From positions 1 through 64,000 of IMG/VR virus record IMGVR_UViG_3300032307_000516: a DNA stretch of 64,000 bases. One strand, given 5' to 3'. The notes under the pieces are model-generated. The model was not told where the DNA came from. It saw only the letters and a program-made list of their open reading frames with translations, and made no database searches. The position numbers and the translations under genes were made by a program. Below, piece by piece: positions 1 to 16,033 of the stretch (position 1 is the first letter of the stretch; the number at the start of each line of letters is the position of its first letter). The DNA comes from a virus.

Positions 1-3000
1 GGATCGTCAGGAACTAGTGGATCGTCAGGAACTAGTGGATCGTCAGGAACTAGTGGAACGTCAGGTACTAGTGGAACTAGTGGTTCAAGTGGAAGTTCTG
101 GATCTAGCGGTTCTTCTGGAACAAGAGGAACTTCCGGATCTAGTGGATCTTCAGGAACTTCCGGAGCTAGCGGATCGTCAGGAACTAGTGGATCGTCAGG
201 AACTAGTGGATCGTCAGGAACTAGTGGAACTTCCGGAGCTAGTGGATCGTCAGGAACTAGTGGAACATCAGGATCTAGTGGAACATCAGGATCTAGTGGA
301 ACATCAGGATCCTCAGGTTCTTCTGGTTCTTCTGGTTCTTCTGGATCATCTGGTTCTTCTGGATCTAGCGGAACATCTGGATCTTCAGGAACTAGTGGAA
401 CTTCAGGATCTTCTGGATCTAGTGGTTCTTCAGGAACTAGGGGAACTTCAGGAACTTCCGGATCTAGTGGAACTAGTGGTTCAAGCGGAACTTCAGGAGC
501 AGCAGGAGCTAGTGGATCCTCAGGAACTAGTGGAACATCAGGAGCTCCTGGACCAGGAGGAACAATAGCTTATTGTGGATCTTTTTACGATACAGCTATA
601 CAGACAAACGCTGGAGCTACAGCGACTAATTATTTTAGATACAATACTACAGATTTCGCATTAGGTGTTTCTATCCAAAACAGTAGCGAAATTACTATTG
701 ATAACGCTGGTACATATAACATACAATTTTCTGCACAGATTGATAAATCTGACTCAGGAAGTGACGTAATTGAAATATGGTTATCAAAAAATGGGTCAAA
801 TGTACCAGACTCATCAACAACTTTGGAAGTTGTCGGAAACAGCACAGAACTAGTAGCTGCTTGGAACTGGTTAGTAGAAGCTGAGGATGGTGATTATTAT
901 GAGATAGCTTGGCACTCGAATGACTTAAACGTTTTTATTCTTGCAAGAGGTACACAAACAAATCCAACAAGACCTGCTATACCTTCGGTAATTCTTACTG
1001 TATCACAGGTAACTTACACCCAGATTGGACCTACTGGAGGATCTGGAACTAGCGGAACTAGCGGTACCTCAGGATCTAGCGGTACCTCAGGATCTAGCGG
1101 ATCATCGGGATCTAGCGGATCATCGGGATCTAGCGGAAGTTCGGGAACAGGAGGAACATCTGGATCTTCTGGAACATCAGGATCTAGTGGTTCTTCTGGA
1201 ACATCTGGAACATCTGGATCTAGTGGAACATCTGGCTTAAGTGTTTCTGCAAGTTTTATGAGAGGATCTCGTTCAACTCAACAGACCACGGGATTAACTA
1301 CTAATAGCTTAGTTGTCTTTACACAAACTGATGTTTCAACGGGATCAGATATCTCATTAAATACTAGCACCGGACAGATTACACTTGCTGCTAATAAAAC
1401 TTATAGAATCTTAGGACAAGTTCCCAACGTGACTATATCAGGGGCTTCTGTTAGACCATCTTTCTGTTGGTATAATGAAACTACCGCTGCATATGTCGGA
1501 AGTGCTGCTTCTTATTACCAGCCATCAGATGCTGCCGGATTTGCTGCCGGGGGAGGTCTTTCAGACTTGGTTCTAACTACCACACAGACCACAGTAATTT
1601 CATACCGAATTTTAAGTACTAATAGCTCATTAACCGGTCTTGGTGGTAATGGTGACTTTGGATTAACTGGTTCTTATCCTTGGTTTGATATAGAGGTTAT
1701 ATCAGGGCATTCTCCTTTGTTAAGTGGAACATCTGGATCTTCAGGATCATCAGGTTCTTCAGGAACTAGTGGTTCTTCAGGTTCTAGTGGAACATCTGGC
1801 TCTTCAGGAACTAGTGGTTCTTCAGGTTCTAGTGGATCTTCGGGGACTAGAGGAACTTCAGGAACTTCGGGTTCTAGTGGAACATCTGGCTCTTCAGGAA
1901 CTAGTGGTTCTTCAGGATCTTCAGGATCTTCAGGAACTAGCGGTTCTTCAGGATCTTCCGGAACTAGTGGAACATCTGGCTCTTCGGGGACTAGAGGAAC
2001 TTCAGGAACTTCGGGTTCTAGTGGAACATCTGGCTCTTCAGGAACTAGTGGTTCTTCAGGTTCTTCAGGATCTTCAGGAACTAGTGGAACATCTGGCTCT
2101 TCAGGAACTAGCGGAACTTCAGGATCTTCCGGAACTAGTGGAACATCTGGCTCTTCGGGAACTAGCGGAACTTCAGGATCTTCAGGATCTAGTGGGTCTT
2201 CAGGATCTAGTGGAACATCAGGAACAACCCCAATAGGAGTTCTGAATTATCAGCAGACTCAAGGAACACAAGTAACAATCAATGCGGGTGCAACTGGTAC
2301 AGTAGTTAGCGCTCCTGCTATTACAACTACAGGCAAGGCAGTACAAATTTTAGTCACAGGAGATGCTAATCCAAATTCAGCAGCAGGGGGTTGGTGTAGA
2401 CTTCAATTATTCAGGGACTCTACTGCAATAGGAAAAATTGTACAGCCTGAGTCAAGTGCACAAAACGAAAATGTCCCTTATGCTTTAAACGTTATAGACG
2501 CACCTACAGCTGGGACATATACATATTCACTAAGGGCAACAACTGTAAGCGGAAGTAATTTTCAGTTCGGAGAATCAGATGGACCGGTGATAAATGTTAT
2601 AGAGCTAGCAGGTTCAGGATCTTCAGGAACATCCGGATCTTCAGGAACCTCAGGATCTAGTGGATCTTCAGGGTCGTCAGGAACTAGTGGAACATCTGGA
2701 TTTACGGTATTAAATAATACAGATAACAACGTTCTAACAGCAACTGGTGTTTCTGGCCAAGCCAACGGGGAATCTACCTTAACGTATGATGGAGTAACCC
2801 TTAAAATGCTTGCTCAATCGGGTGATGAAGGTGGCGAAATTTTCTTAAACAAACCGGTTACAAATAGTTCAATCAACACTGGTGTTACAATTGACATCTA
2901 TCAAAATAGACTTAGATTCTTCGAATCAGGAGGTTCTGCTAGAGGTGCTTATATTGACTTGACAACACAAGCCGCGGGAGTTGCTACGAACCTTTCACCA

Positions 3001-3426
3001 AATGCTTGGCTTTATGTAACAAGAAACACGAATCAAACTATAGGTTCAGGAAACTGGGGTAGCAGGGATATTATTTTTAATAATCAAGTTTATTCAAATA
3101 ATATAACATATAACACATCAACAGGAATAGCCACTCTAACAGCAGGGACTTATAGGATCACAGCAAGATTAGCTTGGAGTGCTGGAGCAACTTATCTAAT
3201 ACAATACTCATTGTTTGATAGCTCAAATAATCAATTGGGTCCAACTGTTGAACAGATACAGCCAACTTCAGGTAGTAATAACGTTAGTTCTGGTGATTTT
3301 GACATGATATATGATACAGCCTCTACGATAGACGTTAAAATTAGAACATTAAGTACTACCAATGCTTTATCCGGTGAGTTCATTAGAGGAGATCTGAATA
3401 CACAGTTCATTATTCAGAAGCTTTGA
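1..3426 (+). CDS. Gly-Ser/Thr triplet-repeat (collagen-like) fibre protein with C1q/BclA-like globular domains, 5'-truncated
   Basis: Frame 1 is open from base 1 (GSSGTS...) into the listed 823..3426 ORF. (G-S/T-S)n tracts alternate with beta-rich domains (GSFYDT..Q, AGTYNIQFSAQ). Confidence 0.75.
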   Translation, partial: GSSGTSGSSGTSGSSGTSGTSGTSGTSGSSGSSGSSGSSGTRGTSGSSGSSGTSGASGSSGTSGSSGTSGSSGTSGTSGASGSSGTSGTSGSSGTSGSSGTSGSSGSSGSSGSSGSSGSSGSSGTSGSSGTSGTSGSSGSSGSSGTRGTSGTSGSSGTSGSSGTSGAAGASGSSGTSGTSGAPGPGGTIAYCGSFYDTAIQTNAGATATNYFRYNTTDFALGVSIQNSSEITIDNAGTYNIQFSAQIDKSDSGSDVIEIWLSKNGSNVPDSSTTLEVVGNSTELVAAWNWLVEAEDGDYYEIAWHSNDLNVFILARGTQTNPTRPAIPSVILTVSQVTYTQIGPTGGSGTSGTSGTSGSSGTSGSSGSSGSSGSSGSSGSSGTGGTSGSSGTSGSSGSSGTSGTSGSSGTSGLSVSASFMRGSRSTQQTTGLTTNSLVVFTQTDVSTGSDISLNTSTGQITLAANKTYRILGQVPNVTISGASVRPSFCWYNETTAAYVGSAASYYQPSDAAGFAAGGGLSDLVLTTTQTTVISYRILSTNSSLTGLGGNGDFGLTGSYPWFDIEVISGHSPLLSGTSGSSGSSGSSGTSGSSGSSGTSGSSGTSGSSGSSGSSGTRGTSGTSGSSGTSGSSGTSGSSGSSGSSGTSGSSGSSGTSGTSGSSGTRGTSGTSGSSGTSGSSGTSGSSGSSGSSGTSGTSGSSGTSGTSGSSGTSGTSGSSGTSGTSGSSGSSGSSGSSGTSGTTPIGVLNYQQTQGTQVTINAGATGTVVSAPAITTTGKAVQILVTGDANPNSAAGGWCRLQLFRDSTAIGKIVQPESSAQNENVPYALNVIDAPTAGTYTYSLRATTVSGSNFQFGESDGPVINVIELAGSGSSGTSGSSGTSGSSGSSGSSGTSGTSGFTVLNNTDNNVLTATGVSGQANGESTLTYDGVTLKMLAQSGDEGGEIFLNKPVTNSSINTGVTIDIYQNRLRFFESGGSARGAYIDLTTQAAGVATNLSPNAWLYVTRNTNQTIGSGNWGSRDIIFNNQVYSNNITYNTSTGIATLTAGTYRITARLAWSAGATYLIQYSLFDSSNNQLGPTVEQIQPTSGSNNVSSGDFDMIYDTASTIDVKIRTLSTTNALSGEFIRGDLNTQFIIQKL

Positions 3427-4880: not shown

Positions 4881-5198
4881 ATGGATTCTATCAATGACGA
4901 AAAACTAAACGAAGCAATAAACGGTGGTAAAACAACACTGGTTTGGTTCTCAGCAGAATGGTGCGGACCATGCAAACTTCTAAGACCTCCTATGGAGAAG
5001 ATTTCTAAAGAACTTTCAGAGAGTTACAATTTCGTAAAAGCTGATGTTGGATCAGCATCAGAAACAACAAAAAGATTTGGTATTAGAAATATTCCAACGT
5101 GCGTTCTAACTAGAGACGGCGAAGAGATCGGAAGATTCTCTGGAGTAAAAAACGAAGAGCAAATAAAAAATTTTTTAGAGGAACATCGTTCTATTTGA
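4881..5198 (+). CDS. trxA: Thioredoxin
   Basis: WCGPC active site, IPT cis-Pro motif, 105 aa. Confidence 0.95.
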   Translation: MDSINDEKLNEAINGGKTTLVWFSAEWCGPCKLLRPPMEKISKELSESYNFVKADVGSASETTKRFGIRNIPTCVLTRDGEEIGRFSGVKNEEQIKNFLEEHRSI

Positions 5199-5207
5199 AA
5201 CTTTTAT

Positions 5208-5246
5208 TATATTTGCAGATAAATAATAAAAACACGTTCTTTAACA
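5208..5246 (+). promoter_or_regulatory. Bacteroidota-type -7 promoter element plus boxA-like antitermination site
   Basis: TATATTTG at 5208-5215; CGTTCTTTAACA at 5235-5246. Confidence 0.65.
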
Positions 5247-5483
5247 TACTTATTTTCTTGAAGCGGTTTAGAAGGTTACTTCACAACATGATAAACGCAG
5301 AAGGATTAGTTCTCCGGTTCTAATCTACACAGGTCTCAGTACTGCTATAGGTGAGGCGCTTCTATATTCTAAAGGATATAGGAGAAAAATCAGTAGCTCG
5401 GTTTAATTCACCTGACTAGAAATTCGGGAATGATTACCTCCCATAAGGAGGAACCACCTTTTAAAGATTTCTCAAGAAAGTAT
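5246..5483 (+). ncRNA. Y-RNA-like element 1 (long form)
   Basis: TTTCTTGA-AGCGG-TTTAGAAGGT-TACTTC ... ACCTTTTAAA-GATTTC-TCAAGAAAG. Terminal and inner stems pair; lies upstream of the TROVE gene. Confidence 0.7.
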
Positions 5484-5495
5484 TATTAATAAAAT

Positions 5496-5569
5496 AAACT
5501 CCGAAGCGGGAACAAGGATTACATCATTAAGGAAAAGAAAAACATCCTCGTTTATTATTCTCGGTTTTT
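5496..5569 (+). ncRNA. Y-RNA-like element 2 (short form)
   Basis: CCGA-AGCGG-GAACAAGGAT-TACATC ... ATCCTCGTTT-ATTATTC-TCGG. Confidence 0.65.
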
Positions 5570-5576
5570 AAATTAT

Positions 5577-5652
5577 TATTCTGAAGCGGGATAAAGAGTT
5601 ACTTCATATAACTTTGCACGAAAAAACGCTCTTTATCAAAATACTCAGGATA
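5577..5652 (+). ncRNA. Y-RNA-like element 3 (short form)
   Basis: TATTCTGA-AGCGG-GATAAAGAGT-TACTTC ... GCTCTTTATC-AAAATAC-TCAGGATA. Confidence 0.7.
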
Positions 5653-5659
5653 TAACTTT

Positions 5660-5696
5660 AAGGGGTTTGAACTACGGTTTAAACCCCTTTTTTATT
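5660..5696 (+). terminator. Intrinsic terminator between the Y-like array and the TROVE gene
   Basis: AAGGGGTTTGAAC-TACG-GTTTAAACCCCTT followed by a T-run. Confidence 0.8.
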
Positions 5697-5720
5697 GCGT
5701 AAAAATTAAAAATAAAATAT

Positions 5721-7367
5721 ATGTCAAGACTAGGCGAATTTGCTGACAAAAAAACAGCAATGCAAATTTTACAAAACTCCACTTACGGAGCACTAGGAGT
5801 AGAGAACTTCATGGGAGGGATATCTTACAGCTTATCACCTCTAAACACATTAAAGATTGTTGCTGCTTCTTCAATCTTTGGAGAACCACAATATTATAGA
5901 GATGGATTAGGTGCTCCTAGTAACCTTAGCACTATCTTGGACTATTCTATATTAGCTCCGATGTTCAAAGCAGAATCTGGAGCTTTAAAAGATAATCTGA
6001 GTGCTGTAGATATCTTCGAAGAAGCCATACAGGCAGCTTTAGACTTCGACTTTAAAGCAACATTGGATTTAGCTTTAGAACTCCGTAACGAGTACTATAT
6101 GCGTCTAAATCCAGCTGTAATATTTGTTAAAGCAAGTATGCACGAAGGTCGTCAGGAGTTCAACGAGAAAAATCCTGGGTACATGAAGATGATAGGTAAA
6201 GCTATTGCTCTTAGACCTGATGATTTAACAAATCAGTTCGAATACTATATGTATAAGAACGGAGGTAAAAAAGGTCTTTCATCTTTGGTGAAAAGAACTT
6301 GGGCAGAAAGACTTGCAGAATTCTCGCGTTACCAATTGAACAAATACAAGGGTAAAAGATTAATCGACCTTGTTCGTATCTCTCACGCTAAAAGTGAAGA
6401 TATTAATGAGCTAATGACAACTGGTACATTAAAAGTAGAAGAGTCAGAAAAAACATGGGAGATCTTAAGATCAGAAAAAAAATCATGGGAAGAGATTGTA
6501 AACACTATCTCAATCCCACATATGGCTCTTTTGAGAAACCTTAGAGGTATTTTTACTGAAGTCGAAGATCCTACACTTACTGCAAGAATTTTAACTCAGT
6601 TAAAAGGCGGTGTTATAAAAGGAAAACAATTCCCTTTTAGATATTGGTCAGCTTATAAAGCTGTATCCAATTCACAGATCCACCACAAACAACTTGTTTT
6701 GGATACTCTTGAAGAATGTTTAGACATCTCTGTAGAGAATATGCCTAAATTAAAAGGTAAAACGGTTTGTCTTTCTGATAACTCAGGATCTGCATGGGGT
6801 GCTTTCAATAGCGAATATGGATCAGTTACTGTAGCAGAGATTGCTAACTTGTCTTCATTAATTACATCACTACAATCTGATTCAGGAGAAGTTGGTGTAT
6901 TTGGGGATGATCTTTCATTGAAAGGAGTATCTAAAAGAAATGGCCTTCTTACACAATTAGAAGAAACTTCTAAAAGAGGTAGAGCTCAAGGAGGTGGTAC
7001 AGAAAATGGAATTTGGGTATTCTTTGATGAAGCCATCAAAAATAAAGTCCATTACGACAACATCTTTATCTATTCAGATATGCAAGCAGGTCACGGTAAT
7101 CTTTATGGACACGGACACACAGTAGGTAAAACTAAATTTGTCCACCCAAGAAAAGGCGGAACATACGTAGACGTACTTGCTATGGCTCAGGAATACAGAG
7201 ATAAAGTTAATCCTAAGGTTAATTTATTTACAGTTCAAGTAGGAGGTTACAACAACAGTGTTCTTCCTGAGGCTCTTTACAGAGGAGCAATATTAGCTGG
7301 TTGGACTGGTAAAGAACCTGTATTTGCTAAAGCAATTATAGACATTTGGGATTCAGTAGAAGCCTAA
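5721..7367 (+). CDS. rsr: TROVE-domain Ro60-like RNA-binding protein with C-terminal vWA domain
   Basis: Motifs ALLRNLR, QFPFRYWSAY, MIDAS-like DNSGS and IFIYSDMQ; 548 aa. Confidence 0.92.
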   Translation: MSRLGEFADKKTAMQILQNSTYGALGVENFMGGISYSLSPLNTLKIVAASSIFGEPQYYRDGLGAPSNLSTILDYSILAPMFKAESGALKDNLSAVDIFEEAIQAALDFDFKATLDLALELRNEYYMRLNPAVIFVKASMHEGRQEFNEKNPGYMKMIGKAIALRPDDLTNQFEYYMYKNGGKKGLSSLVKRTWAERLAEFSRYQLNKYKGKRLIDLVRISHAKSEDINELMTTGTLKVEESEKTWEILRSEKKSWEEIVNTISIPHMALLRNLRGIFTEVEDPTLTARILTQLKGGVIKGKQFPFRYWSAYKAVSNSQIHHKQLVLDTLEECLDISVENMPKLKGKTVCLSDNSGSAWGAFNSEYGSVTVAEIANLSSLITSLQSDSGEVGVFGDDLSLKGVSKRNGLLTQLEETSKRGRAQGGGTENGIWVFFDEAIKNKVHYDNIFIYSDMQAGHGNLYGHGHTVGKTKFVHPRKGGTYVDVLAMAQEYRDKVNPKVNLFTVQVGGYNNSVLPEALYRGAILAGWTGKEPVFAKAIIDIWDSVEA

Positions 7368-7383
7368 ATAAAACCATTATTTT

Positions 7384-7412
7384 AAATCCCTAGCATTGCT
7401 AGGGATTTTTTT
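7384..7412 (+). terminator. Intrinsic terminator
   Basis: AAATCCCTAGC-ATT-GCTAGGGATTT plus T-run. Confidence 0.85.
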
Positions 7413-7449
7413 GTGGGTTTCTACTAAGATATTGGATAAATATACTTGT

Positions 7450-7728
7450 ATGAAAAATTTAAAGACATTTGAGAATCATAGTTTCGAAGTTTACGATTCA
7501 GGTTCTAATATATTAAAAGGATACGGAGAAGAATTCCCATTTTCAAATTTATCCGTGGGAGACAAATTAGTTTATATGGGAACTCCATGTGAGGTTTACG
7601 AAGTATCTGATACTATTATTACATTACAGAATCTAAACCAAAATACAAAAAGATTTACTGTGAATCAAAACATGTTTAATAAAGGCGGATTTATCTCTAA
7701 AAAAGATACTCCAGCTAAACTCAAATAA
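7450..7728 (+). CDS. Hypothetical protein with capsid-targeting-like N-terminus
   Basis: ATG at 7450 (MKNLKTFENH) preferred; the TTG at 7396 lies inside the terminator. Confidence 0.6.
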   Translation: MKNLKTFENHSFEVYDSGSNILKGYGEEFPFSNLSVGDKLVYMGTPCEVYEVSDTIITLQNLNQNTKRFTVNQNMFNKGGFISKKDTPAKLK

Positions 7729-8749: not shown

Positions 8750-8836
8750 GGAGAGGTGGCAGAGCCTGGTTTATTGCACCGGTCTTGAAAACCGACGTAG
8801 TGAAAGCTACCGGGGGTTCGAATCCCTCCCTCTCCG
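8750..8836 (+). tRNA. tRNA-Ser(TGA)
   Basis: Cloverleaf, loop CTTGAAA, long variable arm. Confidence 0.95.
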
Positions 8837-8841
8837 CATTT

Positions 8842-8915
8842 GGTCCGCTAGCTCAGCTGGATAGAGCAACTGCCTTCTAAGCAGTAGGTCTCAGGTTCGA
8901 ATCCTGAGCGGATCA
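8842..8915 (+). tRNA. tRNA-Arg(TCT)
   Basis: Cloverleaf, loop CTTCTAA. Confidence 0.95.
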
Positions 8916-9082
8916 CACAAATCCCTCTGCCTAGCGCTGGGTATGGATCGAAGATAGAATATGCCTCTACACCGTAGACAGGTAGGATACCTCGGTATTC
9001 TTTAATGATATGCACACTTATTCTCCAAATCGTTGGTTGGCACAGTTTGTATGTTCTGGTGATACTTAAAGACATACAATTT

Positions 9083-9155
9083 CGGGATGTAGATCAGTTG
9101 GTAGATCGCCTGGTTTGGGACCAGGAGGCCCCAGGTTCGAGTCCTGGTATCCCGA
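9083..9155 (+). tRNA. tRNA-Pro(TGG)
   Basis: Cloverleaf, loop TTTGGGA, C1:G72. Confidence 0.95.
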
Positions 9156-9158
9156 CTA

Positions 9159-9221
9159 CGGAGGCTGTAAAGTCAAACAGTGAAGAATTTAAAGGATGAC
9201 ATCTTTAAATCCCTCCGACCA
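9159..9221 (+). ncRNA. CCA-ended tRNA-like mini-RNA with Pro-like acceptor end
   Basis: CGGAGG/CCTCCG-A-CCA closing two hairpins. Confidence 0.5.
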
Positions 9222-9222
9222 T

Positions 9223-9296
9223 AGAGGCGTAGCTCAATTGGTTAGAGCACATGCCTTATACGCATGCGGTCACGAGTTCGACTCTCGTCGTCTCTA
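9223..9296 (+). tRNA. tRNA-Ile(TAT)
   Basis: Cloverleaf, CATGC-CTTATAC-GCATG. Confidence 0.9.
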
Positions 9297-9300
9297 CTTA

Positions 9301-9374
9301 GGTCCCTTAGCTCAGTAGGTTAGAGCAACTGACTCATAATCAGTAGGTCCACGGTTCGAGCCCGTGAGGGACCA
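9301..9374 (+). tRNA. tRNA(CAT), probably Ile2 (lysidine type)
   Basis: Cloverleaf, loop CTCATAA, ileX-like acceptor GGTCCCT. Initiator and elongator Met tRNAs are found elsewhere in the window. Confidence 0.8.
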
Positions 9375-9465
9375 CAAAGATACGGATGAGATTTCTAAAT
9401 CTCCTACTTACTTATGAAAAGAAGGATTCCGTAACTAATACCATATAGTAGTGATGGTATTGTCT

Positions 9466-9548
9466 GCCCGGATGTTGAAATAGGTAGACAAGACGGACTT
9501 AAAATCCGTTGGCCATTGGTCGTGAGGGTTCAAGTCCCTCTCCGGGTA
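9466..9548 (+). tRNA. tRNA-Leu(TAA)
   Basis: Cloverleaf, loop CTTAAAA, variable arm. Confidence 0.95.
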
Positions 9549-9553
9549 CAAAT

Positions 9554-9660
9554 ATAATAGTGGCAGAGAGGCTTAATGCTGAGCATACATAGAGTCTGGG
9601 AATGTGGTATGTATGATACCTATACACGGGGACTCGCAGGTTCGAATCCTGTCTATTATA
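9554..9660 (+). ncRNA. Non-canonical tRNA-like RNA with expanded anticodon arm
   Basis: Acceptor ATAATAG/CTATTAT, D-arm, T-arm GCAGG-TTCGAAT-CCTGT; an 8-bp CATACATA/TATGTATG arm with 16-nt loop. Confidence 0.6.
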
Positions 9661-9663
9661 TAT

Positions 9664-9768
9664 ATAGGAGTGGCGGAAGCGTGATCTTTGCAAAGGTCCG
9701 ATAGATAGACGACAGGGTGTCATACCCGAGAATGAAAGTTCATATTGGTGCAAGTCCAATCTCCTGTA
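9664..9768 (+). ncRNA. Non-canonical tRNA-like RNA with D-loop insertion
   Basis: Acceptor ATAGGAG/CTCCTGT, T-arm ATTGG-TGCAAGT-CCAAT, GAAA-capped variable arm, extra hairpin in the D-loop. Confidence 0.55.
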
Positions 9769-9792
9769 CTTTTTTGATATATATAAAGAATC

Positions 9793-10164
9793 ATGAGTGA
9801 ACATATTAAGATATCAGGAATGGGTATAGAAATATACAAAAATGATATACCAGGTGTAAGATGGAATAAAGCTCAGTCTTTTGCTCAGATTCTTGGAGAT
9901 GGATGGAGATTACCAACTTTAGAAGAACTTGCTTTAATAAGATCAATAAGAAATATAGGTGATATAGGAAGATTTCCTGTAGAATATTCGGATTTTTCCG
10001 ATTCATATTACTGGAGTAACGAAGAACGCGAATTTACTACTAAAAAAATGATGGGAAGTAGTCTTAAAAGTACCTATGCTTACTTTTTTGATATGGCTGA
10101 AGGAACTTCTTCACACAATAAAAAGTCATACGAGCTTAGGGCTAGATTTGTTAGAGATATATAA
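9793..10164 (+). CDS. DUF1566/Lcl C-terminal-like domain protein
   Basis: GWRLPTLEEL and YYWS motifs. Confidence 0.75.
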   Translation: MSEHIKISGMGIEIYKNDIPGVRWNKAQSFAQILGDGWRLPTLEELALIRSIRNIGDIGRFPVEYSDFSDSYYWSNEEREFTTKKMMGSSLKSTYAYFFDMAEGTSSHNKKSYELRARFVRDI

Positions 10165-10167
10165 ATC

Positions 10168-10944
10168 ATGCCAACAACAAGAGCATTTGCATATAATCCA
10201 GCACAAGCAACAATTTCTGGAACTACAAATATAGGTACATTATGTGTAGGTGTATCTGCTTTAAATTACGGAGGAAATCCTGGTGGATTAACTTGGTGGA
10301 TGGGTCCGGACGAGGATAATTCTTATGTTATAGCTAAGGATGTGCCAACAGCAGACTTCCCTACTCCAGTAGGTAATGTTGGTAATGTACAATTTTGGAG
10401 ATGTTCTAACAACAGCTCAGAATTCACTAATCTTGTTACATTAATAAGTGGTACTACACAAGCATCTGCTTCTGCTGCTCAATCGTGGCTATCAACAAAT
10501 AATTATTGGACTAATTACACTAGCGGAGTAACTTTCTCACAACCTTTTGTAAATGGTACTGCACCAACAAATGCAGTAGAAACTGCTTGGAATACATTTA
10601 GAGCATCTTTAACAGGTTCTTATACACAATTTGTTGTATCTAATTCATTAGGGTTTAGTTTAACAGTAAGTCATGCTACTTCAGTACAGACTTTGGCAAA
10701 TGCACTAAGAAATGCAACAAATAATACCTCGGTAACTATAAACAGCGTAGTTTGGAGAGTAGGAACAGGATGTGGAACTCCTAAAATAGGTGGGGTTGCT
10801 GTTGAATTTTCCAACGTAGCAAGCTGTAGTTCATCAAGTACTATAGCATTTAGACCTATGATTAATAACTTAAACTGGGGAGGTATGGGTACAGGATCTA
10901 CTGTAGGACAGGCTTCACAAACAATGACACTAACATTTAGCTAA
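10168..10944 (+). CDS. Hypothetical Thr/Ser/Gly-rich virion-type protein
   Basis: 258-aa ORF with late-type motif upstream. Confidence 0.6.
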   Translation: MPTTRAFAYNPAQATISGTTNIGTLCVGVSALNYGGNPGGLTWWMGPDEDNSYVIAKDVPTADFPTPVGNVGNVQFWRCSNNSSEFTNLVTLISGTTQASASAAQSWLSTNNYWTNYTSGVTFSQPFVNGTAPTNAVETAWNTFRASLTGSYTQFVVSNSLGFSLTVSHATSVQTLANALRNATNNTSVTINSVVWRVGTGCGTPKIGGVAVEFSNVASCSSSSTIAFRPMINNLNWGGMGTGSTVGQASQTMTLTFS

Positions 10945-11096
10945 TGGAAACTTATAGAATAATAGACTTAAGAGTAACCCCAAATGAAATAGTACCAGGT
11001 AAGGAATCTGTTACTTTAGAAGAGGGACAATTATGGATAGACGAGAACGGAGGAGATTGTCCATTGTGCGACTATACGCTATTAATCAATGAATAA
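10944..11096 (+). CDS. Small hypothetical protein (50 aa; not in ORF track)
   Basis: TAATG overlap with the upstream gene; METYRIIDLRV...CPLCDYTLLINE. Confidence 0.5.
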   Translation: METYRIIDLRVTPNEIVPGKESVTLEEGQLWIDENGGDCPLCDYTLLINE

Positions 11097-11202
11097 ATGT
11101 AGATTTTTTAAAATAATTTGAAAAAAATACAAAAAACATTTTTTTAAACGGGAACTTTTCCGTACTTTTGGAGTATATAATAAAAAAGGAACAAAACTTT
11201 CA

Positions 11203-11292
11203 ATGAAACACTTTTTAAATATCGAAATGGATCTTCAGCTTCTAAAAGGAGACGAACGTCTTGAGGATACAAATAAGTGTCAGAGGAAATAA
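11203..11292 (+). CDS. Attenuator leader peptide 2 (MKHFLNIEMDLQLLKGDERLEDTNKCQRK)
   Basis: Core enriched in GAR, GAY and CTN codons; the 3' end carries the antiterminator strand. Confidence 0.75.
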   Translation: MKHFLNIEMDLQLLKGDERLEDTNKCQRK

Positions 11293-11362
11293 ATTTATAT
11301 AAAGATATAATTTAAACCTCTGATAACCTCAGAGGTTTTTTTGTTTTATACGCTCTTTGAAA
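11278..11362 (+). promoter_or_regulatory. Attenuator 2: antiterminator/terminator switch plus boxA
   Basis: TGTCAGAGG (11278-86) pairs with CCTCTGATA (11317-25), competing with AAACCTCTGA/TCAGAGGTTT plus T-run; CGCTCTTTGAAA at 11351. Confidence 0.78.
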
Positions 11363-11366
11363 TTAT

Positions 11367-11441
11367 GGTCCCTTCGTCTATCGGTTAGGACGTTAGGTTT
11401 TCATCCTAGAAAGAGGGGTTCGATTCCCCTAGGGACTACCA
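11367..11441 (+). tRNA. tRNA-Glu(TTC)
   Basis: Cloverleaf, loop TTTTCAT, encoded CCA. Confidence 0.92.
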
Positions 11442-11446
11442 GAAAA

Positions 11447-11520
11447 GGTCCTACAGTCCAGTTGGAGTGGACGCCGCCCTGTCACGGCGGAGATCGCGGG
11501 TTCGAGTCCCGCTAGGACCG
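11447..11520 (+). tRNA. tRNA-Asp(GTC)
   Basis: Cloverleaf, loop CTGTCAC, G73. Confidence 0.95.
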
Positions 11521-11618
11521 CTAAAACTTATGCTACATAGAGCAAAGCAGAAAGGTACGATCTGGTACACTATGAAGTACAAATAGAAAGTCAGATCATA
11601 AGTTTTAAAAAATTATAT

Positions 11619-11691
<73 letters not shown>

Positions 11692-11905
11692 CTAATAAGT
11701 TATTTGAAATATTTGCGAAAAGTTCGATGGAATCAATTATAGGTCCAGGGCACAAATCCGTGTGAGGAATCCAATTGATAGAAGAACCTTCTACTGAGTA
11801 ATGCACGTACACGTGATATCCATAGAAAAGTCCTAATAAGTTAAAGGCAAAGGAGTTGATAATACCGGTTAAAAACAACTTTATCTCTTTAGATAGCAAA
11901 TAAAT

Positions 11906-11985
11906 GCCCTCGTGGTGGAATTGGTAGACACGCTAGACTTAGGATCTAGTGCGAAAGCGTGAGAGTTCGAGTCTCTCCGAGGGTA
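11906..11985 (+). tRNA. tRNA-Leu(TAG)
   Basis: Cloverleaf, loop CTTAGGA, variable arm. Confidence 0.95.
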
Positions 11986-11987
11986 CT

Positions 11988-12485
11988 ATGAAAGTTATAT
12001 TTTTAGATTTTGATGGTGTTCTTAATCTTATACCTCAAGGACATGACTATTACGGAGGGATTTTTCACCCTGAATTTGTCGGCAACCTAGGTAGGATTAT
12101 AGAGGAAACTGGAGCAAAACTTGTGATAAGCTCTTCGTGGAGAACTATGGGATTGGAAAGACTTAGAATGATGTGGGAACATCGTTTATATCCAGGAGAC
12201 ATCATAGGAGTTACCCCAGATCTTAGATGGAGGACAAAAAAAGATGCTATGGAATTAAACGAAGTCGAGTACGTTAGAGGAGATGAAATAGAGTCATGGC
12301 TAAATCTACATCCGGAGGTAACTAATTATGTTATACTTGACGATGATGATGATATGTTACAATCACAAAGAATAAACTTTGTAAGAACATCTGATAATAT
12401 TAATCATCCTGATTGCATTGATATAGGATACGGATTAACTAATATTTGTTCTAACGATGCAATTAGAATTTTAAACAGAAAATAA
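11988..12485 (+). CDS. HAD phosphatase, Swiss-army-knife RNA-repair type (HAD_SAK_2-like)
   Basis: IFLDFDGV, ISSSWR, RGDEI and ILDD motifs; ATG at 11988 lies just after the tRNA. Confidence 0.85.
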   Translation: MKVIFLDFDGVLNLIPQGHDYYGGIFHPEFVGNLGRIIEETGAKLVISSSWRTMGLERLRMMWEHRLYPGDIIGVTPDLRWRTKKDAMELNEVEYVRGDEIESWLNLHPEVTNYVILDDDDDMLQSQRINFVRTSDNINHPDCIDIGYGLTNICSNDAIRILNRK

Positions 12486-13054
12486 TGAAAGTTATATTTT
12501 TAGATCATGATGGAGTAATTTGTCTTTCCCAGCAATTTGGTGGGCGTTACAAAAAGCAGACTAAAGCTAGAACTAAGCTTTCTCAAAACGTGATGGATTT
12601 TCCAGTCGATGCTAGATTTGATAACTTCGATAAGAAAGCTATTAAAGTTCTAAACCTAATCTTAGAAGATACTGGAGCTGAAATAGTTGTTTCTTCTGAT
12701 TGGAAGAACTGGGCAAATGTTGAAGAAATGGGCGAATATTACGAACAACAAGGTATAATTAAAAAGCCTATTGATTTTACACCTAGAGAATACACAATGC
12801 CAGAGAAACAAGAATGGCATCCAGACTGGGATTTAGAAGCATCAAGAACTTTAGAAATCCAAGAATGGCTAAAAGATCATCCAGAGGTTACTCATTGGGT
12901 AGCAATAGATGATTTAGATATGAGCTTTAAAGAGGTATCAAATAATAGAAGCGGTACTGGCTGGGGCTTAAAAAACTTTGTACACACCCCAAGTATCACT
13001 GAAGGGATTAAAAAAATGGGTATAAAAGAAAAAGTTTTAAAATTTTTAAAATAA
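12485..13054 (+). CDS. HAD phosphatase, HAD_SAK_2-like paralog
   Basis: IFLDHDGV, VSSDWK, RTLEI and AIDD motifs. Confidence 0.85.
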   Translation: MKVIFLDHDGVICLSQQFGGRYKKQTKARTKLSQNVMDFPVDARFDNFDKKAIKVLNLILEDTGAEIVVSSDWKNWANVEEMGEYYEQQGIIKKPIDFTPREYTMPEKQEWHPDWDLEASRTLEIQEWLKDHPEVTHWVAIDDLDMSFKEVSNNRSGTGWGLKNFVHTPSITEGIKKMGIKEKVLKFLK

Positions 13055-13137
13055 TTTCAAAAAACATTTTTTTATTTAAAAAATATATTGTACTTTTACG
13101 AAACTATTCTGGAAACAGGATATATAATTAAGAAAAA

Positions 13138-13245
13138 ATGAAAAACTGTAGTAAACATAACATCAATCGCATGAACAGTCAAATTAATGGCTGCTATCAA
13201 ACGGTGGCGTTTTGGGCTAAGGGGAAAGAACCCGATCGAAGCTAA
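13138..13245 (+). CDS. Attenuator leader peptide 3 (MKNCSKHNINRMNSQINGCYQTVAFWAKGKEPDRS)
   Basis: Codons 2-30 encode exactly the 16 amino-acid types served by tRNA operon 3. Confidence 0.85.
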   Translation: MKNCSKHNINRMNSQINGCYQTVAFWAKGKEPDRS

Positions 13246-13319
13246 TACAGAAAATCATAATTAGATATTTTGGAAAAGGCTTCGATTTAATCGAAGCCTT
13301 TTTTATTTGTTCTTTGACA
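13234..13319 (+). promoter_or_regulatory. Attenuator 3: antiterminator/terminator switch plus boxA
   Basis: GATCGAAGC (13234-42) pairs with GCTTCGATT (13279-87), competing with AAAAGGCTTCGA/TCGAAGCCTTTT; TGTTCTTTGACA at 13308. Confidence 0.82.
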
Positions 13320-13332
13320 TACTGGAAAAAAT

Positions 13333-13405
13333 GGTACCGTAGCTCAGTTGGTAGAGCACTAGACTGAAAATCTAGGTGTCGCCGGTTCGATTCCGGCCGG
13401 TACCA
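13333..13405 (+). tRNA. tRNA-Phe(GAA)
   Basis: Cloverleaf, loop CTGAAAA. Confidence 0.95.
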
Positions 13406-13476
13406 CAATACTAAACAAGAAATTGTCTCACTAAACTAATCATGTTTAGTATTACAAAAACAAGTTTAGTAACAAT

Positions 13477-13550
13477 GATCTCGTAGCTCAGTTGGCTAGA
13501 GCACCTCACTTTTAATGAGGGAGTCGAGGGTTCGAGCCCCTCCGGGATCA
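13477..13550 (+). tRNA. tRNA-Lys(TTT)
   Basis: Cloverleaf, loop CTTTTAA. Confidence 0.95.
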
Positions 13551-13556
13551 CTACAC

Positions 13557-13629
13557 ACGTCAGTAGCTCAATTGGTAGAGCGTTGGTCTCCAAAACCAAA
13601 GGTCGTAGGTTCGATTCCTACCTGGCGTG
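13557..13629 (+). tRNA. tRNA-Trp(CCA)
   Basis: Cloverleaf, loop CTCCAAA. Confidence 0.95.
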
Positions 13630-13635
13630 CTAAAA

Positions 13636-13708
13636 GGCTCTGTAGTTCAAGGGATTAGAATGGATCACTACGGATGATCTGATCCTGGTTCGAATCCAGG
13701 TGGAGTCT
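13636..13708 (+). tRNA. tRNA-Arg(ACG)
   Basis: Cloverleaf, loop CTACGGA. Confidence 0.9.
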
Positions 13709-13719
13709 CAAACAAATAA

Positions 13720-13791
13720 GGTCGTGTGGTCGAGTGGTTTAGGCACTAGTCTGCAAAACTAGTTATACTGGTTCAATTCCAGTCACGGCCT
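13720..13791 (+). tRNA. tRNA-Cys(GCA)
   Basis: Cloverleaf, loop CTGCAAA, U73. Confidence 0.93.
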
Positions 13792-13925
13792 CAAAAAATG
13801 TAAGAAGTATGAAAATAGTTATTGAAGGAAAAATGAAATCGTCGAATCACAGATTAAATGCGATTCCAGTTAAAATTGAAAGAAAAAATTCTCTAATCAA
13901 AAGAATCAAAAGATTGATTAATAAA

Positions 13926-14011
13926 GGAAAGTAATCTCAGATGGTGACGGGGCTCGCCTGCTAAGCGAAGCGTACCTTAATTGGTATTTGGTTCGATTCC
14001 AATTCTTTCCG
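13926..14011 (+). tRNA. tRNA-Ser(GCT), somewhat divergent
   Basis: Loop CTGCTAA, variable arm, G73; mismatches at stem ends. Confidence 0.8.
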
Positions 14012-14017
14012 CAACAT

Positions 14018-14091
14018 TGACATATAGCTCAGTTGGTTAGAGCGTTGATCTGATACGTCAAAGGTCGAAGGTTCGAATCCTTCTATGTCAA
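14018..14091 (+). tRNA. tRNA-Ile(GAT)
   Basis: Cloverleaf, loop CTGATAC. Confidence 0.93.
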
Positions 14092-14154
14092 CTTAAAAAT
14101 TATAAAAATGAAAAAAGAATTTGACAACTTGTAGGTTTAATTAAACCCTACAAG

Positions 14155-14346
14155 ATGAGTAAAAACACAAACAGAGCAAAACTGAACAAAGCAATGAATG
14201 GTAGAGAACACAGAAACATTTTAAATAATGCTCTTTATCCTCCATACAGTGAATATGATCACACATGGTGGCATGGAAATTTATCCAATCACAAATGGAG
14301 ATCATACAAAACCTGGAAACACAACAGAAAAACAAAATGGAAGTAA
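14155..14346 (+). CDS. Small basic Trp-rich protein inside the tRNA operon
   Basis: 63-aa ORF filling the tRNA spacer, ending KTWKHNRKTKWK. Confidence 0.55.
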   Translation: MSKNTNRAKLNKAMNGREHRNILNNALYPPYSEYDHTWWHGNLSNHKWRSYKTWKHNRKTKWK

Positions 14347-14357
14347 TTCCATTTTAC

Positions 14358-14430
14358 AGTCTCTTAGCTCAGTTGGTAGAGCGCTTGGTTTACATCCAAG
14401 ATGTCGGGGGTTCGAGCCCCTCAGGGACTA
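14358..14430 (+). tRNA. tRNA-Val(TAC)
   Basis: Cloverleaf, loop TTTACAT. Confidence 0.95.
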
Positions 14431-14433
14431 CAA

Positions 14434-14586
14434 GATTAGAAGCGGTAGATTTGGTTACTTCGCACTTTTAATGCCCGTGTCGGGGGTTCGAATCCCTCAT
14501 CTAGCTCCATAGCAGATCCTAGGATTTGTGCTAGATTAGCTCAGCGGTAGAGCAGGTTCCAAACCAAATCTAAATATTCTCTAATC
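14434..14586 (+). ncRNA. Y-RNA-like element 4 containing a circularly permuted tRNA-Lys(TTT)
   Basis: GATTAGA-AGCGG-TAGATTTGGT-TACTTC [tRNA 3' half, CCA, linker, tRNA 5' half] ACCAAATCTA-AATATTC-TCTAATC. Confidence 0.8.
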
Positions 14587-14592
14587 CTAATA

Positions 14593-14680
14593 TTGATTAG
14601 AAGCGGTGAAAGGGGTTACTTCTCAAAACCTTGTAAATTTTTGACCAAAAAACCACCCCGATTAAATATTCTCTAATCAA
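14593..14680 (+). ncRNA. Y-RNA-like element 5 (short form)
   Basis: TTGATTAGA-AGCGG...GGGGT-TACTTC...ACCCC...AATATTC-TCTAATCAA. Confidence 0.7.
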
Positions 14681-14684
14681 AACT

Positions 14685-14756
14685 GGGGATGTAGCTCAGC
14701 GGTAGAGCTCCCGACTGTTAATCGGTAGGTCGCTGGTTCGAATCCAGCCTTCCCCG
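14685..14756 (+). tRNA. tRNA-Asn(GTT)
   Basis: Cloverleaf, loop CTGTTAA, G73. Confidence 0.92.
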
Positions 14757-14792
14757 CAATTCAGAGTGTTGAGCAATTGGTTGCTCAGCTGA
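14756..14792 (+). repeat. Truncated duplicate of the tRNA-Tyr 5' half (direct repeat of 15940-15976)
   Basis: GCAATTCAGAGTGTTGAGCAATTGGTTGCTCAGCTGA versus GCACTTCGGAGTGTTGAGCAATTGGCTGCTCAGCTGA (3 mismatches). Confidence 0.85.
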
Positions 14793-14829
14793 TAAAAGAA
14801 TATATTATATTTAGATTCAATTTTAAGTT

Positions 14830-15940: not shown

Positions 15941-15945
15941 CACTT

Positions 15946-16030: not shown

Positions 16031-16033
16031 AAT

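Follow-up and report, generated by a model that had tools for sequence, protein, structure and literature searches.

Five putative Y RNA genes share a docking scaffold beside a predicted Ro60 gene in a phage genome fragment

In a 64,000-nt stretch of phage DNA, we identified five copies of a structured RNA scaffold on the same strand as a gene for a Ro60-like (TROVE) protein. Judged from sequence, we assign a probability of about 0.78 to the reading that these elements are Y RNA genes of the YrlA/YrlB kind and that their products are the RNA partners of this Ro60. Conservation of Ro60 and its Y RNAs extends from bacteria to humans. Publications already cover Y RNAs beside phage Ro60 genes, the permuted-tRNA cargo and the modular plan, and the finding is therefore less novel than a preliminary description of this DNA had implied. 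What looks new is a distinct docking consensus missed by Rfam at its threshold, arrays of two to seven Y RNA paralogues, the position of Y RNA copies tightly between tRNA genes and, in distant relatives, a scaffold that closes around whole tRNA-like units. Some of the copies may already be among the phage Y RNAs in the supplementary tables of Chen 2014.

The phage clade provides a natural RNA series in which one docking module carries many inner modules, some of which, in relatives, are complete tRNA look-alikes. It bears on what the bacterial tRNA-like Y RNAs do. The covariance model used here (R1) recovers Y RNAs that Rfam misses at threshold, some of them annotated, or annotatable, as ordinary tRNA genes. 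One clade member, Bacillus phage G, is growable in the laboratory; through the clade, the bases that Ro60 reads, what each module recruits and the action of Ro particles against tRNA-targeting host defences become testable.

Five scaffold copies in the window

The window, meaning the whole stretch analysed (positions 1-64,000 of IMG/VR record IMGVR_UViG_3300032307_000516), contains scaffold copies c1-c5, all on the + strand (Table 1). The preliminary description had placed the copies at 5246, 5496, 5577, 14434 and 14593; all five were present and four of these starts held, with the best-paired boundary of c1 shifted from 5246 to 5251. The motif GAAGCGG occurred eight times, exclusively on the + strand, against 2.56 ± 1.6 expected by chance, and none of 100 shuffled sequences reached eight. 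The longer pattern GAAGCGG-N8-12-TACWTC was found five times in the forward and zero times in the reverse direction, and a backwards-read control gave zero in both. The remaining GAAGCGG sites, at 12948, 50644 and 52950, were not accompanied by the rest of the scaffold.

MFE folds of c1, c3, c4 and c5 gave an outer stem, the 5-nt AGCGG and an inner stem. The c2 fold was weak, no better than that of shuffled sequence, and its outer stem was the weakest of the five (CCGA/UCGG plus AAA/UUU); the inner stem of c5 contained two mismatches. We built R1 from 19 copies with short cargo and searched both strands of the entire 64 kb with its filters disabled. It scored every copy, c2 at E = 2e-14 and c1 at E = 0.012, the low score of c1 arising because its cargo of about 170 nt breaks the alignment. 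This unfiltered search revealed no sixth copy in the window, the other 22 of the 27 listed matches having E >= 0.25. At the gathering threshold, Rfam reported only tRNAs in the window.

The cargo, described earlier as varying from a short A-rich loop to a multi-hairpin RNA to a permuted tRNA, indeed ranged from 18 nt (c2) to about 174 nt (c1) and included a unit of T arm, closed acceptor and D arm (c4). Both c1 stems were retained in orthologous long copies (15 in one comparison, 11 in another). The c1 cargo matched no described family, and Rfam at E <= 10 on 5100-5800 returned only noise.

Table 1. Features of the Ro60 region and the associated tRNA operon, in window coordinates.
Feature	Position	Strand	R1 (bits)	MFE z-score	Basis and remarks
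Conserved upstream boxes	5195-5249	+			TTGAAAC..., then ACGTTCTTTAACATAC; candidate promoter/5' leader of c1-c3
Y-like RNA c1, 232 nt	5251-5482	+	19.6	-2.96	MFE fold, orthologue stems, R1; multi-hairpin cargo
c1 outer stem	5251-5261 / 5472-5482	+			
c1 AGCGG	5262-5266	+			
c1 inner stem	5267-5275 / 5457-5465	+			
c1 UUACUUC	5276-5282	+			
c1 3' loop GAUUUC	5466-5471	+			
Y-like RNA c2	5496-5568	+	64.2	-0.23	R1; A-rich cargo
Y-like RNA c3	5577-5652	+	80.7	-3.35	R1, MFE; short A-rich loop cargo
Intrinsic terminator	5660-5695	+			13-bp stem and T run; between array and Ro60 start codon
Predicted Ro60/Rsr orthologue, 548 aa	5721-7367	+			TROVE HEAT-repeat ring and C-terminal vWA
Terminator after Ro60 gene	7384-7408	+			
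Two tandem HAD-domain genes	11949-13054	+			'Swiss Army Knife' RNA-repair type; inside tRNA region
tRNA-Val	14358-14431	+			Ends 2 nt before c4
Y-like RNA c4, YrlA type	14434-14586	+	50.0	-3.62	R1, Rfam YrlA, MFE
c4 hairpin	14462-14474	+			7-nt loop CUUUUAA
c4 T arm	14482-14498	+			
c4 acceptor-like stem, 7 bp	14499-14505 / 14530-14536	+			Closed by 24-nt insert starting UCCA
c4 D arm	14539-14553	+			
Y-like RNA c5	14593-14680	+	73.0	-1.45	R1; short cargo; 3' end 4 nt before tRNA-Asn
tRNA-Asn	14685-14757	+			Directly downstream of c5

Covariation of the stems and invariance of the loops

The scaffold had been described as stems that change in sequence yet stay paired, joined by nearly constant loops, and the alignments upheld this. 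Of the 305 cells in a MAFFT alignment built from 19 short copies, 94.1% were paired, compared with 64.5 ± 1.9% after shuffling, and 0 of 500 shuffles reached the observed value. Double changes occurred in 15 of the 17 pairs, and slid registers paired at 39-52%. When 79 distinct copies were aligned to the model, 91.7% paired versus 56.8%, with double changes in all 17 pairs; this alignment was fitted to the model and therefore leans towards the structure.

The loop segments AGCGG, UUACUUC and AAUAUUC-UC were nearly invariant. In 80/80 copies, AGCGG kept its G and C, UUACUUC kept its U, C, U and C, and the same C preceded the closing UC. Such invariance of unpaired bases is typical of a site contacted by protein. 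A terminal helix, formed by the 5' and 3' ends, is interrupted by a conserved internal loop, as expected of a Y RNA. We also considered pairing of GAAG with CUUC within one copy and rejected it, since the middle U/A of UUACUUC varies with no accompanying change in its partner.

The Ro60 gene product

The preliminary description had named the adjacent TROVE gene a phage Ro60, and Pfam, PHROG and AlphaFold/Foldseek agreed. The Pfam TROVE match reached 38.3 bits against a cut-off of 23, with only residues 238-323 aligned, and PHROG 850 ('RNA-binding protein') matched at E = 2.9e-47. The AlphaFold model (pLDDT 78, pTM 0.78) consisted of a HEAT-repeat ring followed by a vWA domain. Foldseek matched it to phiLo Ro60 (9kop, E = 1.4e-15), Xenopus Ro (1yvp, 1.7e-11) and Deinococcus Rsr (2nvo, 2.7e-11). 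The fold matches 9kop, 9l5y, 1yvp, 2nvo and 9nen spanned 516-600 alignment columns (E 1e-15 to 2e-9); isolated vWA domains came after them. The PDB sequence profile reached phiLo Ro60 alone, and it took the fold search to bring out the likeness to Xenopus Ro and Deinococcus Rsr. The DxSxS of the vWA MIDAS was present (D353, N354, S355, G356, S357), and DNSGS was invariant in 15 relatives. NCBIfam gave no family match for the Ro60 or the HAD-domain proteins. By sequence and predicted structure, the product is judged to be a true Ro60 orthologue.

Linkage of the scaffold to TROVE genes

Relative to the TROVE gene, c1-c3 are located 69-470 nt upstream and c4-c5 7 kb downstream, all on its strand. 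A covariance-model search for co-occurrence with TROVE genes had been proposed as a check on the family. R1 gave a match at E <= 0.01 in 45 of 48 viral loci, which had been fetched by TROVE similarity, and all 121 matches at E <= 1 in these 48 loci lay on the TROVE strand. In five whole records (1.49 Mb), 15/15 matches fell within about 5.6 kb of the TROVE gene and on its strand; all six matches in the 497-kb genome of phage G are among these 15. Among bacterial/MAG TROVE loci, the scaffold was present in 48 of 80, and 66 of 68 matches shared the strand of the gene. Rfam YrlA had 0 matches in 14 loci that R1 hits.

The linkage is partly confounded, as TROVE genes adjoin tRNA clusters in most of these phages. 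One locus, L042, had three copies and zero tRNA genes, indicating that the scaffold is linked to TROVE and not to tRNA clusters. In the distant relatives L033-L051, the copies lay downstream of the TROVE gene. R1 found nothing in a Nitratidesulfovibrio phage whose TROVE protein is 35% identical (best E 0.086, wrong strand), and when cultured phages were searched at the DNA level, the sole match was the TROVE gene of phage G. An exact 14-base motif scan of IMG/VR returned at least 118 stretches; among the 80 loci listed, R1 confirmed five. Two of these five hold TROVE, the third has TROVE elsewhere in its 96%-complete record, and none was seen in the last two, from records with a completeness of 9% and 3%. 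For IMG/VR this pattern is too short, so that co-occurrence is not measurable from that scan.

The tRNA-like module of c4 and of distant relatives

Rfam YrlA (RF02553) matched c4 at model positions 23-86 with 28.3 bits (E = 3e-4), covering the tRNA-like core only; its gathering score of 69 bits was not reached by c4 or anything else in the window. The T arm, closed acceptor stem and D arm were present in permuted order with all three helices aligned, as in a YrlA-type effector module. The T-arm side of c4 was closest to the window's own tRNA-Lys(UUU). As a normal cloverleaf tRNA, c4 received no ARAGORN call and 22 bits from the Rfam tRNA model (cut-off 29), and it has no anticodon stem of normal length. 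The "permuted tRNA" of the preliminary description is thus present in c4, but as a novelty it does not stand, being the already published YrlA architecture. c4 was missing from relatives L007 and L014. An encoded NCCA after the acceptor-like stem, read from the sequences, occurred in only two of six permuted copies and was rejected as a family feature.

In distant relatives, the scaffold clamps entire tRNA-like units, whose anticodons are those for Lys, Ser, Leu and Thr. ARAGORN called full tRNAs inside 8 of 94 distinct copies, all in relatives. Embedded tRNA-Lys-like units were alike to the regular tRNA-Lys of the same phage in 45-50 of 80-85 aligned columns. The covarying stems, the invariant loops, the strand and position linkage and the YrlA-like module in c4 together support the original identification of the family as Y-RNA-like and linked to Ro60.

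Array surroundings and expression

The upstream boxes recurred before the first copy in most of 17 loci inspected. A sigma-70 scan did not flag a promoter at 5195-5249, and their promoter or leader role is accordingly putative. A hairpin with a T run stood at the position matching the first terminator in 15 of 17 loci examined, and the order Val, Y copy or copies, Asn was also found in L012, L007 and L014. Pfam HAD_SAK_2 matched the tandem HAD-domain genes at E = 8.4e-27 and 9.3e-23. Neither RtcB nor a CCA-adding enzyme was found in the 72-kb record, an absence that carries little weight in about 25% of a genome.

Whole contigs of 354, 233 and 369 nt inside 5275-5640 were present in three metatranscriptome runs, each from a different study, and 0/3 crossed the terminator; cover of the Ro60 gene was patchy. 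The contigs inside the array give a weak hint of expression, since DNA may be present in such data and RNA ends are not visible in contigs.

Comparison with known Ro60 and Y RNA systems

YrlA combines a Ro-binding module with a circularly permuted tRNA mimic, and is described with a 5' motif GNCGAAN0-1G and a YUAY element after the stem (Chen et al. 2014, PMC4201824; Wang et al. 2018, bioRxiv 10.1101/312249). This modular plan, a Ro-docking plus an effector module, has been published for YrlA and other Y RNAs. In the window scaffold, GAAG and UUAC occupy the places of the published motifs. Most copies contained GAAG; CGAAG was limited to those with C as the paired base (c2; some relatives, GGCGAAGCGG), and full GNCGAAG to some relatives, the G two bases upstream not being conserved. 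The window bases that precede GAAG are paired and for that reason vary.

Like YrlA and YrlB as described in Salmonella, Mycobacterium smegmatis and others, the elements lie within a few kb of a Ro60/Rsr gene on its strand, have paired termini with a conserved 5' motif containing GAA(N)G and YUAY after the stem, and include one paralogue with a circularly permuted tRNA mimic beside others with simple loops. In those systems one precursor yields several RNAs by processing, as it would here. M. smegmatis YrlA is reported to be cleaved by RNase P and to receive CCA. Unlike YrlA/YrlB, the docking consensus reads GA-AGCGG ... UUACUUC ... AAUAUUC-UC, Rfam YrlA stays below its gathering score (a phage G copy, at 36.2 bits, as well as c4), there are five paralogues rather than the two described, and two copies are squeezed in between tRNA genes. 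The small window copies have A-rich loops, whereas those of the published small Y RNAs are described as pyrimidine-rich.

Metazoan Y RNAs (human Y1, Y3, Y4, Y5) are also described as paralogues with a common Ro-binding terminal helix, and their differing internal loops are thought to recruit different proteins. They are separate polymerase III genes, unlike the window RNAs in arrays and tRNA operons. Neither in sequence nor by model was a likeness to the window RNAs detectable: Rfam Y_RNA (RF00019) had no match at E <= 10 in 5100-5800 or 14340-14700.

Among phages, the gp540 (TROVE) locus of Bacillus phage G has been reported with a Y-like RNA (PMC12135203, citing Chen 2014). We found gp540 to be 53.5% identical to the window Ro60 and the scaffold to be shared: upstream of gp540 a gap of 1 kb contains four copies, one 158-nt copy is YrlA-like and one copy sits in the tRNA cluster. 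None of these copies is annotated in the phage G record. The window protein has its best sequence and fold match in the Ro60 of Thermus phage phiLo, which in vitro binds Yrl1 and Yrl2, encoded upstream of its gene, and forms a ternary complex with host PNPase (NAR 2025, PMC12135203). The phiLo system resembles ours in its phage Ro60 and its upstream Y-like RNAs with stem, internal loop, stem and a CGAA-type motif. It differs in having two RNAs, for which no tRNA-like module is reported, and in that its RNA binding was demonstrated in vitro, whereas that of the window Ro60 is predicted. Ro60-like gp130 of coliphage Bas63 counters the Ppl defence system according to the PhageMaP preprint (PMC11482910), whose authors guess that some annotated tRNAs are Y RNAs. 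There too, the phage Ro60-like gene adjoins a tRNA gene block; gp130 was absent among the listed matches of our Ro60 protein search.

Proposed mechanism and alternative explanations

We propose that c1-c3 would be made as a single transcript stopping at the terminator that follows them, with the Ro60 mRNA probably arising by read-through. c4 and c5 would be transcribed within the tRNA operon, and their ends set by the enzymes that process the adjoining tRNA-Val and tRNA-Asn. In each RNA, the 5' and 3' ends would pair as the outer stem, and the asymmetric internal loop (AGCGG opposite AAUAUUC), the second stem and UUACUUC would form a constant docking module for the Ro60 ring. The variable inner module, be it a tRNA look-alike (c4), an A-rich single-stranded loop (c2, c3, c5) or a conserved multi-hairpin domain (c1), would decide the further contacts of the particle, and one Ro protein may thereby have several tethered functions. 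The role is most likely RNA surveillance, decay or repair during infection, with the host attacking tRNAs or other RNAs.

The copies could instead be cis-acting structured spacers, read by a ribonuclease or another phage protein rather than by Ro60, that serve as processing or stability signals in tRNA operons and as a leader or attenuator of the Ro60 mRNA. Copies do lie 1-7 nt from tRNA ends in several loci, and the Ro60 gene has c1-c3 in its 5' region, with a possibly attenuating terminator after them. We nevertheless consider spacers improbable: copies are found downstream of TROVE in L033-L051 and without any tRNA gene in L042, the tRNA genes of phage G outside the TROVE region have no nearby copies, and the invariant loop bases, effector-like variable cargo and YrlA-type module fit the plan of a Y RNA. 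It is very unlikely that c4 and the tRNA-bearing copies of relatives are tRNA genes or pseudogenes matured to ordinary tRNAs, with the scaffold as a precursor clamp only. The full tRNAs called by ARAGORN would fit this, as would the acceptor-like stem of c4 followed by UCCA and the RNase P cleavage and CCA of M. smegmatis YrlA; against it stand the permuted order and failed tRNA calls of c4, the limited likeness of the embedded Lys-like units to regular tRNA-Lys, and the lack of any tRNA-like part in three of the five window copies.

A selfish repeat (MITE-like or homing) with terminal inverted repeats and no RNA-level function would account for multiple copies with inverted termini and for cargo gained or lost, as with c4 in L007 and L014. 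Mobile repeats, however, preserve sequence, not pairing, whereas here the stem sequences differ and pairing is kept by double changes. All copies also share a single orientation and are restricted to TROVE neighbourhoods, and we regard such a repeat as extremely improbable.

Within the Y RNA reading, a more specific role can be put forward tentatively, although we think it doubtful. The array would be an evolvable set of Ro60-held tRNA or anticodon-loop look-alikes that protects the phage from tRNA-cutting host nucleases, each Y RNA being a different bait for such nucleases or for the repair enzymes that act after them. Ro60 would keep hold of the bait and recruit decay or repair factors, and insertion of tRNA pieces into the constant docking helix would exchange one bait for another. 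Nucleases of phage defence that recognise the anticodon stem-loop are reported to target host tRNA-Lys (PARIS AriB; PMC11464382), and a decoy role for YrlA has been floated (PMC7790460). The Ro60-like phage protein that counters a defence system (PMC11482910) and the tRNA-like units clamped in distant relatives also underlie this reading. The CUUUUAA loop of c4 is Lys-type. In the cargo of 105 distinct copies, we counted 47 anticodon-like 7-nt loops, compared with 18 ± 4 in shuffled sequence, and CUUUUAA occurred seven times against 0.035 expected.

Five copies of one scaffold

In the window, GAAGCGG occurred at eight sites, all on the + strand, against an expectation of 2.56 ± 1.6. The extended pattern GAAGCGG-N8-12-TACWTC gave five forward matches and none in the reverse direction or in the control. 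The preliminary description had proposed five copies (c1–c5) sharing a stem-AGCGG-stem-TAC(T/A)TC-cargo layout, and we could read this layout in all five. From 5' to 3', the outer stem of a copy ends in GA and is followed by AGCGG, an inner stem (about 9 bp), UUAC(U/A)UC, the cargo (a variable inner module), the inner-stem partner, a 6–7-nt A/U-rich run with a final C, and UC with the outer-stem partner. Minimum-free-energy folds recovered it for c1, c3, c4 and c5; the fold of c2 was weak. We trained a covariance model, R1, on 19 copies with short cargo and searched both strands of the whole window with filters off. It scored c2–c5 at 50–81 bits and c1 at 19.6 bits and found no further match better than E 0.25, so the family has exactly five members here. 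A segment at about 13885–13903, inside a small ORF, looks like the 3' part of the c5 scaffold, with UUCUC and identical outer-stem bases, and has no matching 5' part; it is possibly the remnant of a copy.

Positions of scaffold copies, neighbouring genes and scaffold-enclosed tRNA-like units
Feature	Record	Position	Strand	Remark
c1	window	5251-5482	+	long cargo
c2	window	5496-5568	+	short A-rich loop
c3	window	5577-5652	+	short A-rich loop
c4	window	14434-14586	+	permuted tRNA-like cargo
c5	window	14593-14680	+	short A-rich loop
Ro60 ORF	window	5721-7367	+	548 residues
HAD-domain tandem gene pair, 'Swiss Army Knife' RNA-repair type	window	11949-13054	+	in tRNA region; Pfam E 8.4e-27, 9.3e-23
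RNA_ligase-family open frame	window	63622-64000		continues to record 64164; PF09414
Enclosed tRNA-like units	L033	11672-11804, 11821-11934		ARAGORN
Enclosed tRNA-like units	L034	11655-11784, 11909-12018		ARAGORN
Enclosed tRNA-like unit	L036	1936-2046		ARAGORN
Enclosed tRNA-like units	L038	11782-11900, 11916-12046		ARAGORN
Enclosed tRNA-like units	L049	10568-10686, 10791-10918		ARAGORN
Enclosed tRNA-like unit	L052	7183-7294		ARAGORN

Selection on the RNA

Using the window TROVE protein as query, we collected 48 related viral loci (26–91% identity). We aligned 19 short copies, drawn from the window and 14 of these loci, with plain MAFFT. In this alignment 94.1% of cells pair, versus 64.5% after shuffling and 39–52% when the partner was slid, and 15 of 17 pairs carried double (compensatory) changes. 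An R1-fitted alignment of 79 distinct copies, which is biased towards structure by that fitting, gave 91.7% versus 56.8% shuffled, with double changes at 17/17 pairs. The G and C of AGCGG, four positions of UUACUUC and the C preceding the closing UC were identical in 80 of 80 copies. The described combination of divergent, still-paired stems with nearly constant loops thus held; judged from these alignments, fixed unpaired bases amid variable stems are the look of a specific protein-binding RNA.

Linkage to TROVE genes

The suggested covariance-model search for co-occurrence was run on TROVE loci. Of the 48 viral loci, 45 had at least one R1 match (E ≤ 0.01), and two of the other three are truncated at the TROVE gene; 121 of 121 matches with E ≤ 1 lay on the TROVE strand. 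Copies stand directly upstream of the gene in close relatives and directly downstream, often with one upstream, in the clade of 48–56% identity. Across five whole records (1.49 Mb), 15/15 matches at E ≤ 1e-3 fell within about 5.6 kb of TROVE on the same strand. Bacillus phage G (497,513 bp) had its 6/6 matches within 405,192–412,840, around gp540 (407,414–409,045), the closest cultured relative of the window Ro60 (53.5% identity). In its excised locus (L173, NC_023719), scaffold copies, at least six around gp540 and unannotated, lie at 5722–5879, 7199–7703 and 13304–13370. One further degenerate copy (GAUGCGG) seems present in the spacer before gp540. Locus L042 holds three scaffold copies and zero tRNA genes, indicating that the scaffold tracks TROVE rather than simply tRNA clusters.

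In the reverse direction, we scanned IMG/VR for an exact 14-base motif, which gave mostly noise: among the matches listed, R1 confirmed 5 of 80, with TROVE in three of these records and the other two being 3–9% fragments. The scaffold was also found in 48 of 80 bacterial or MAG TROVE loci (66/68 matches on the gene's strand), from Bacteroidota, Clostridia, Synergistaceae and two isolates, Flavobacterium sp. 9AF (L178) and Bacillus sp. Brlt_9 (L210); several look phage-like, having long tRNA arrays. Among cellular genomes, a Crocinitomicaceae MAG contig (L175, Bacteroidota) carries the closest TROVE homologue, at 69% identity. In a Mogibacterium MAG contig (L207), a full-length ROOL RNA (648–1222, 310 bits) sits next to a long array of tRNAs and lies about 4 kb upstream of the TROVE homologue.

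The family is real and conserved, and we put its identity as Y RNAs serving the phage Ro60 at a probability of about 0.78. Such RNAs might tether Ro60 to more than one partner and perhaps act as bait for defences that cut tRNAs.

Cargo and relation to known Y RNAs

Cargo spanned the range first described, from short A-rich loops to a multi-hairpin module of about 174 nt in c1 and a permuted tRNA-like unit in c4. The c1 cargo matched no Rfam family and is conserved as the first array copy in at least 15 loci. In c4, the T arm is followed by a 7-bp acceptor-like stem that an insert closes, then by the D arm. Positions 23–86 of Rfam YrlA align with this copy with a score of 28.3 bits (E 3e-4), short of the family's gathering score of 69. 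The T-arm side of c4 is most similar to the phage's own tRNA-Lys(UUU), with an 11-base identical run in common, and the hairpin 5' of the T arm has a 7-nt loop, CUUUUAA.

Among 94 distinct copies from all loci, 54 were short-loop, 14 long c1-type, 9 medium of unassigned kind, 6 permuted tRNA-like and 3 T-arm only (one a c1-type long copy). Eight of the 94, none among the window's copies, held a complete normal-order tRNA according to ARAGORN (Lys-UUU five, Ser two, Thr one). Their inner stem is continuous with the acceptor stem, so that an entire tRNA look-alike, anticodon loop exposed, is clamped by the Y scaffold. ARAGORN called the enclosed units of six distant relatives (see table) as tRNA-Lys(ttt), Ser, Thr and Leu; embedded and regular tRNA-Lys of the same phages had only 45–50 of 80–85 aligned columns in common.

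YrlA, a bacterial Y RNA, is described as a Ro-binding module joined to a tRNA mimic that is circularly permuted and whose acceptor stem is closed, and c4 has the same plan. By position, its published 5' motif GNCGAAN0-1G resembles GAAG(CGG) here, and YUAY after the stem resembles UUAC. Ro60-adjacent Y-like RNAs are reported from 254 bacteria and 22 phages (Chen 2014, PMC4201824), the latter including mycobacteriophages, CcrColossus and phage G according to the phiLo paper (PMC12135203), which itself describes a phage Ro60 binding two upstream Y-like RNAs in vitro and a complex with host PNPase. The kind is therefore already known, and a modular adaptor, as proposed in the preliminary description, is how Y RNAs are usually modelled. 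The window family differs from Rfam YrlA in a distinct docking-module consensus, beyond that model's reach, and from known Y RNA systems in the number of paralogues that a genome carries (five here, at least six in phage G), the location of copies within tRNA operons and, in relatives, whole-tRNA cargo. Our literature search, whose coverage excluded most subscription journals and key reviews, returned no account of such arrays or scaffold-clamped tRNAs.

Probable expression and processing

Between c3 and the Ro60 start codon lies a terminator, a 13-bp hairpin with a T run; its equivalent is present in 15 of the 17 loci inspected, and conserved boxes lie 5' of c1. Logan contigs of 354, 233 and 369 nt, from three metatranscriptome runs of three studies, fall wholly inside 5275–5640, and none of the three crosses the terminator. 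They are only a hint of c1–c3 expression, since contigs prove neither transcription nor RNA ends.

tRNA-Val ends 2 nt before c4, and tRNA-Asn begins 4 nt past c5. The same slot between tRNA-Val and tRNA-Asn holds c4 and c5 in L012 and a c5-type copy only in L007 and L014; copies also lie within 1–8 nt of tRNAs in L015, L027, L030, L040 and L041. This arrangement suggests that RNase P and tRNA 3'-end enzymes would set the Y RNA ends, and that cargo-bearing copies may have been gained and lost among relatives. In L030 (9730–9975), two Y copies flank a tRNA-Gly (9819–9892) directly upstream of the TROVE gene. tRNAs with anticodon UUA, which would read the stop UAA, occur at 12104–12193 (L034), 1826–1898 (L036), 17787–17858 (L043) and 12462–12535 (L173); none was called in the window.

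The Ro60 gene and its neighbourhood

The Ro60 ORF matched Pfam TROVE (38.3 bits, cut-off 23) and PHROG 850 (E 2.9e-47), and its DNSGS metal-site motif is invariant across 15 relatives. Its AlphaFold model (pLDDT 78) matched Thermus phage phiLo Ro60, Xenopus and human Ro60 and Deinococcus Rsr over nearly full length, the next structure matches being isolated vWA domains. Sequence and model thus both identify the predicted protein as a Ro60 orthologue.

The window covers the first 64 kb of a 72-kb IMG/VR virus record. CheckV puts that record at about 25% complete, which makes it a piece of a large phage. ARAGORN called 26 tRNA genes in the window (8750–16541). A jumbo-phage review counts TROVE proteins with a tRNA-like partner as RNA-repair equipment. 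Besides the HAD-domain pair, a 452-residue open frame at the window end matched RNA_ligase barely above cut-off (27.9 bits versus 27); neither RtcB nor a CCA-adding enzyme was found in this partial record. A large ORF at 823–3426 with collagen triple-helix repeats (Pfam E 8.3e-33) probably encodes a fibre or structural protein. At 13925–14011, a probable additional tRNA, Ser-GCU-like with its CUGCUAA loop and long variable arm, was not called by ARAGORN and was seen only as a sub-threshold Rfam tRNA-Sec match (38.3 bits versus 47, E 7e-5). The 277-nt intergenic region 13056–13332, 5' of tRNA-Phe, had no match in Rfam; with a folding z of −4.43 versus shuffles and a strong terminator hairpin at its end, it may be another small RNA.
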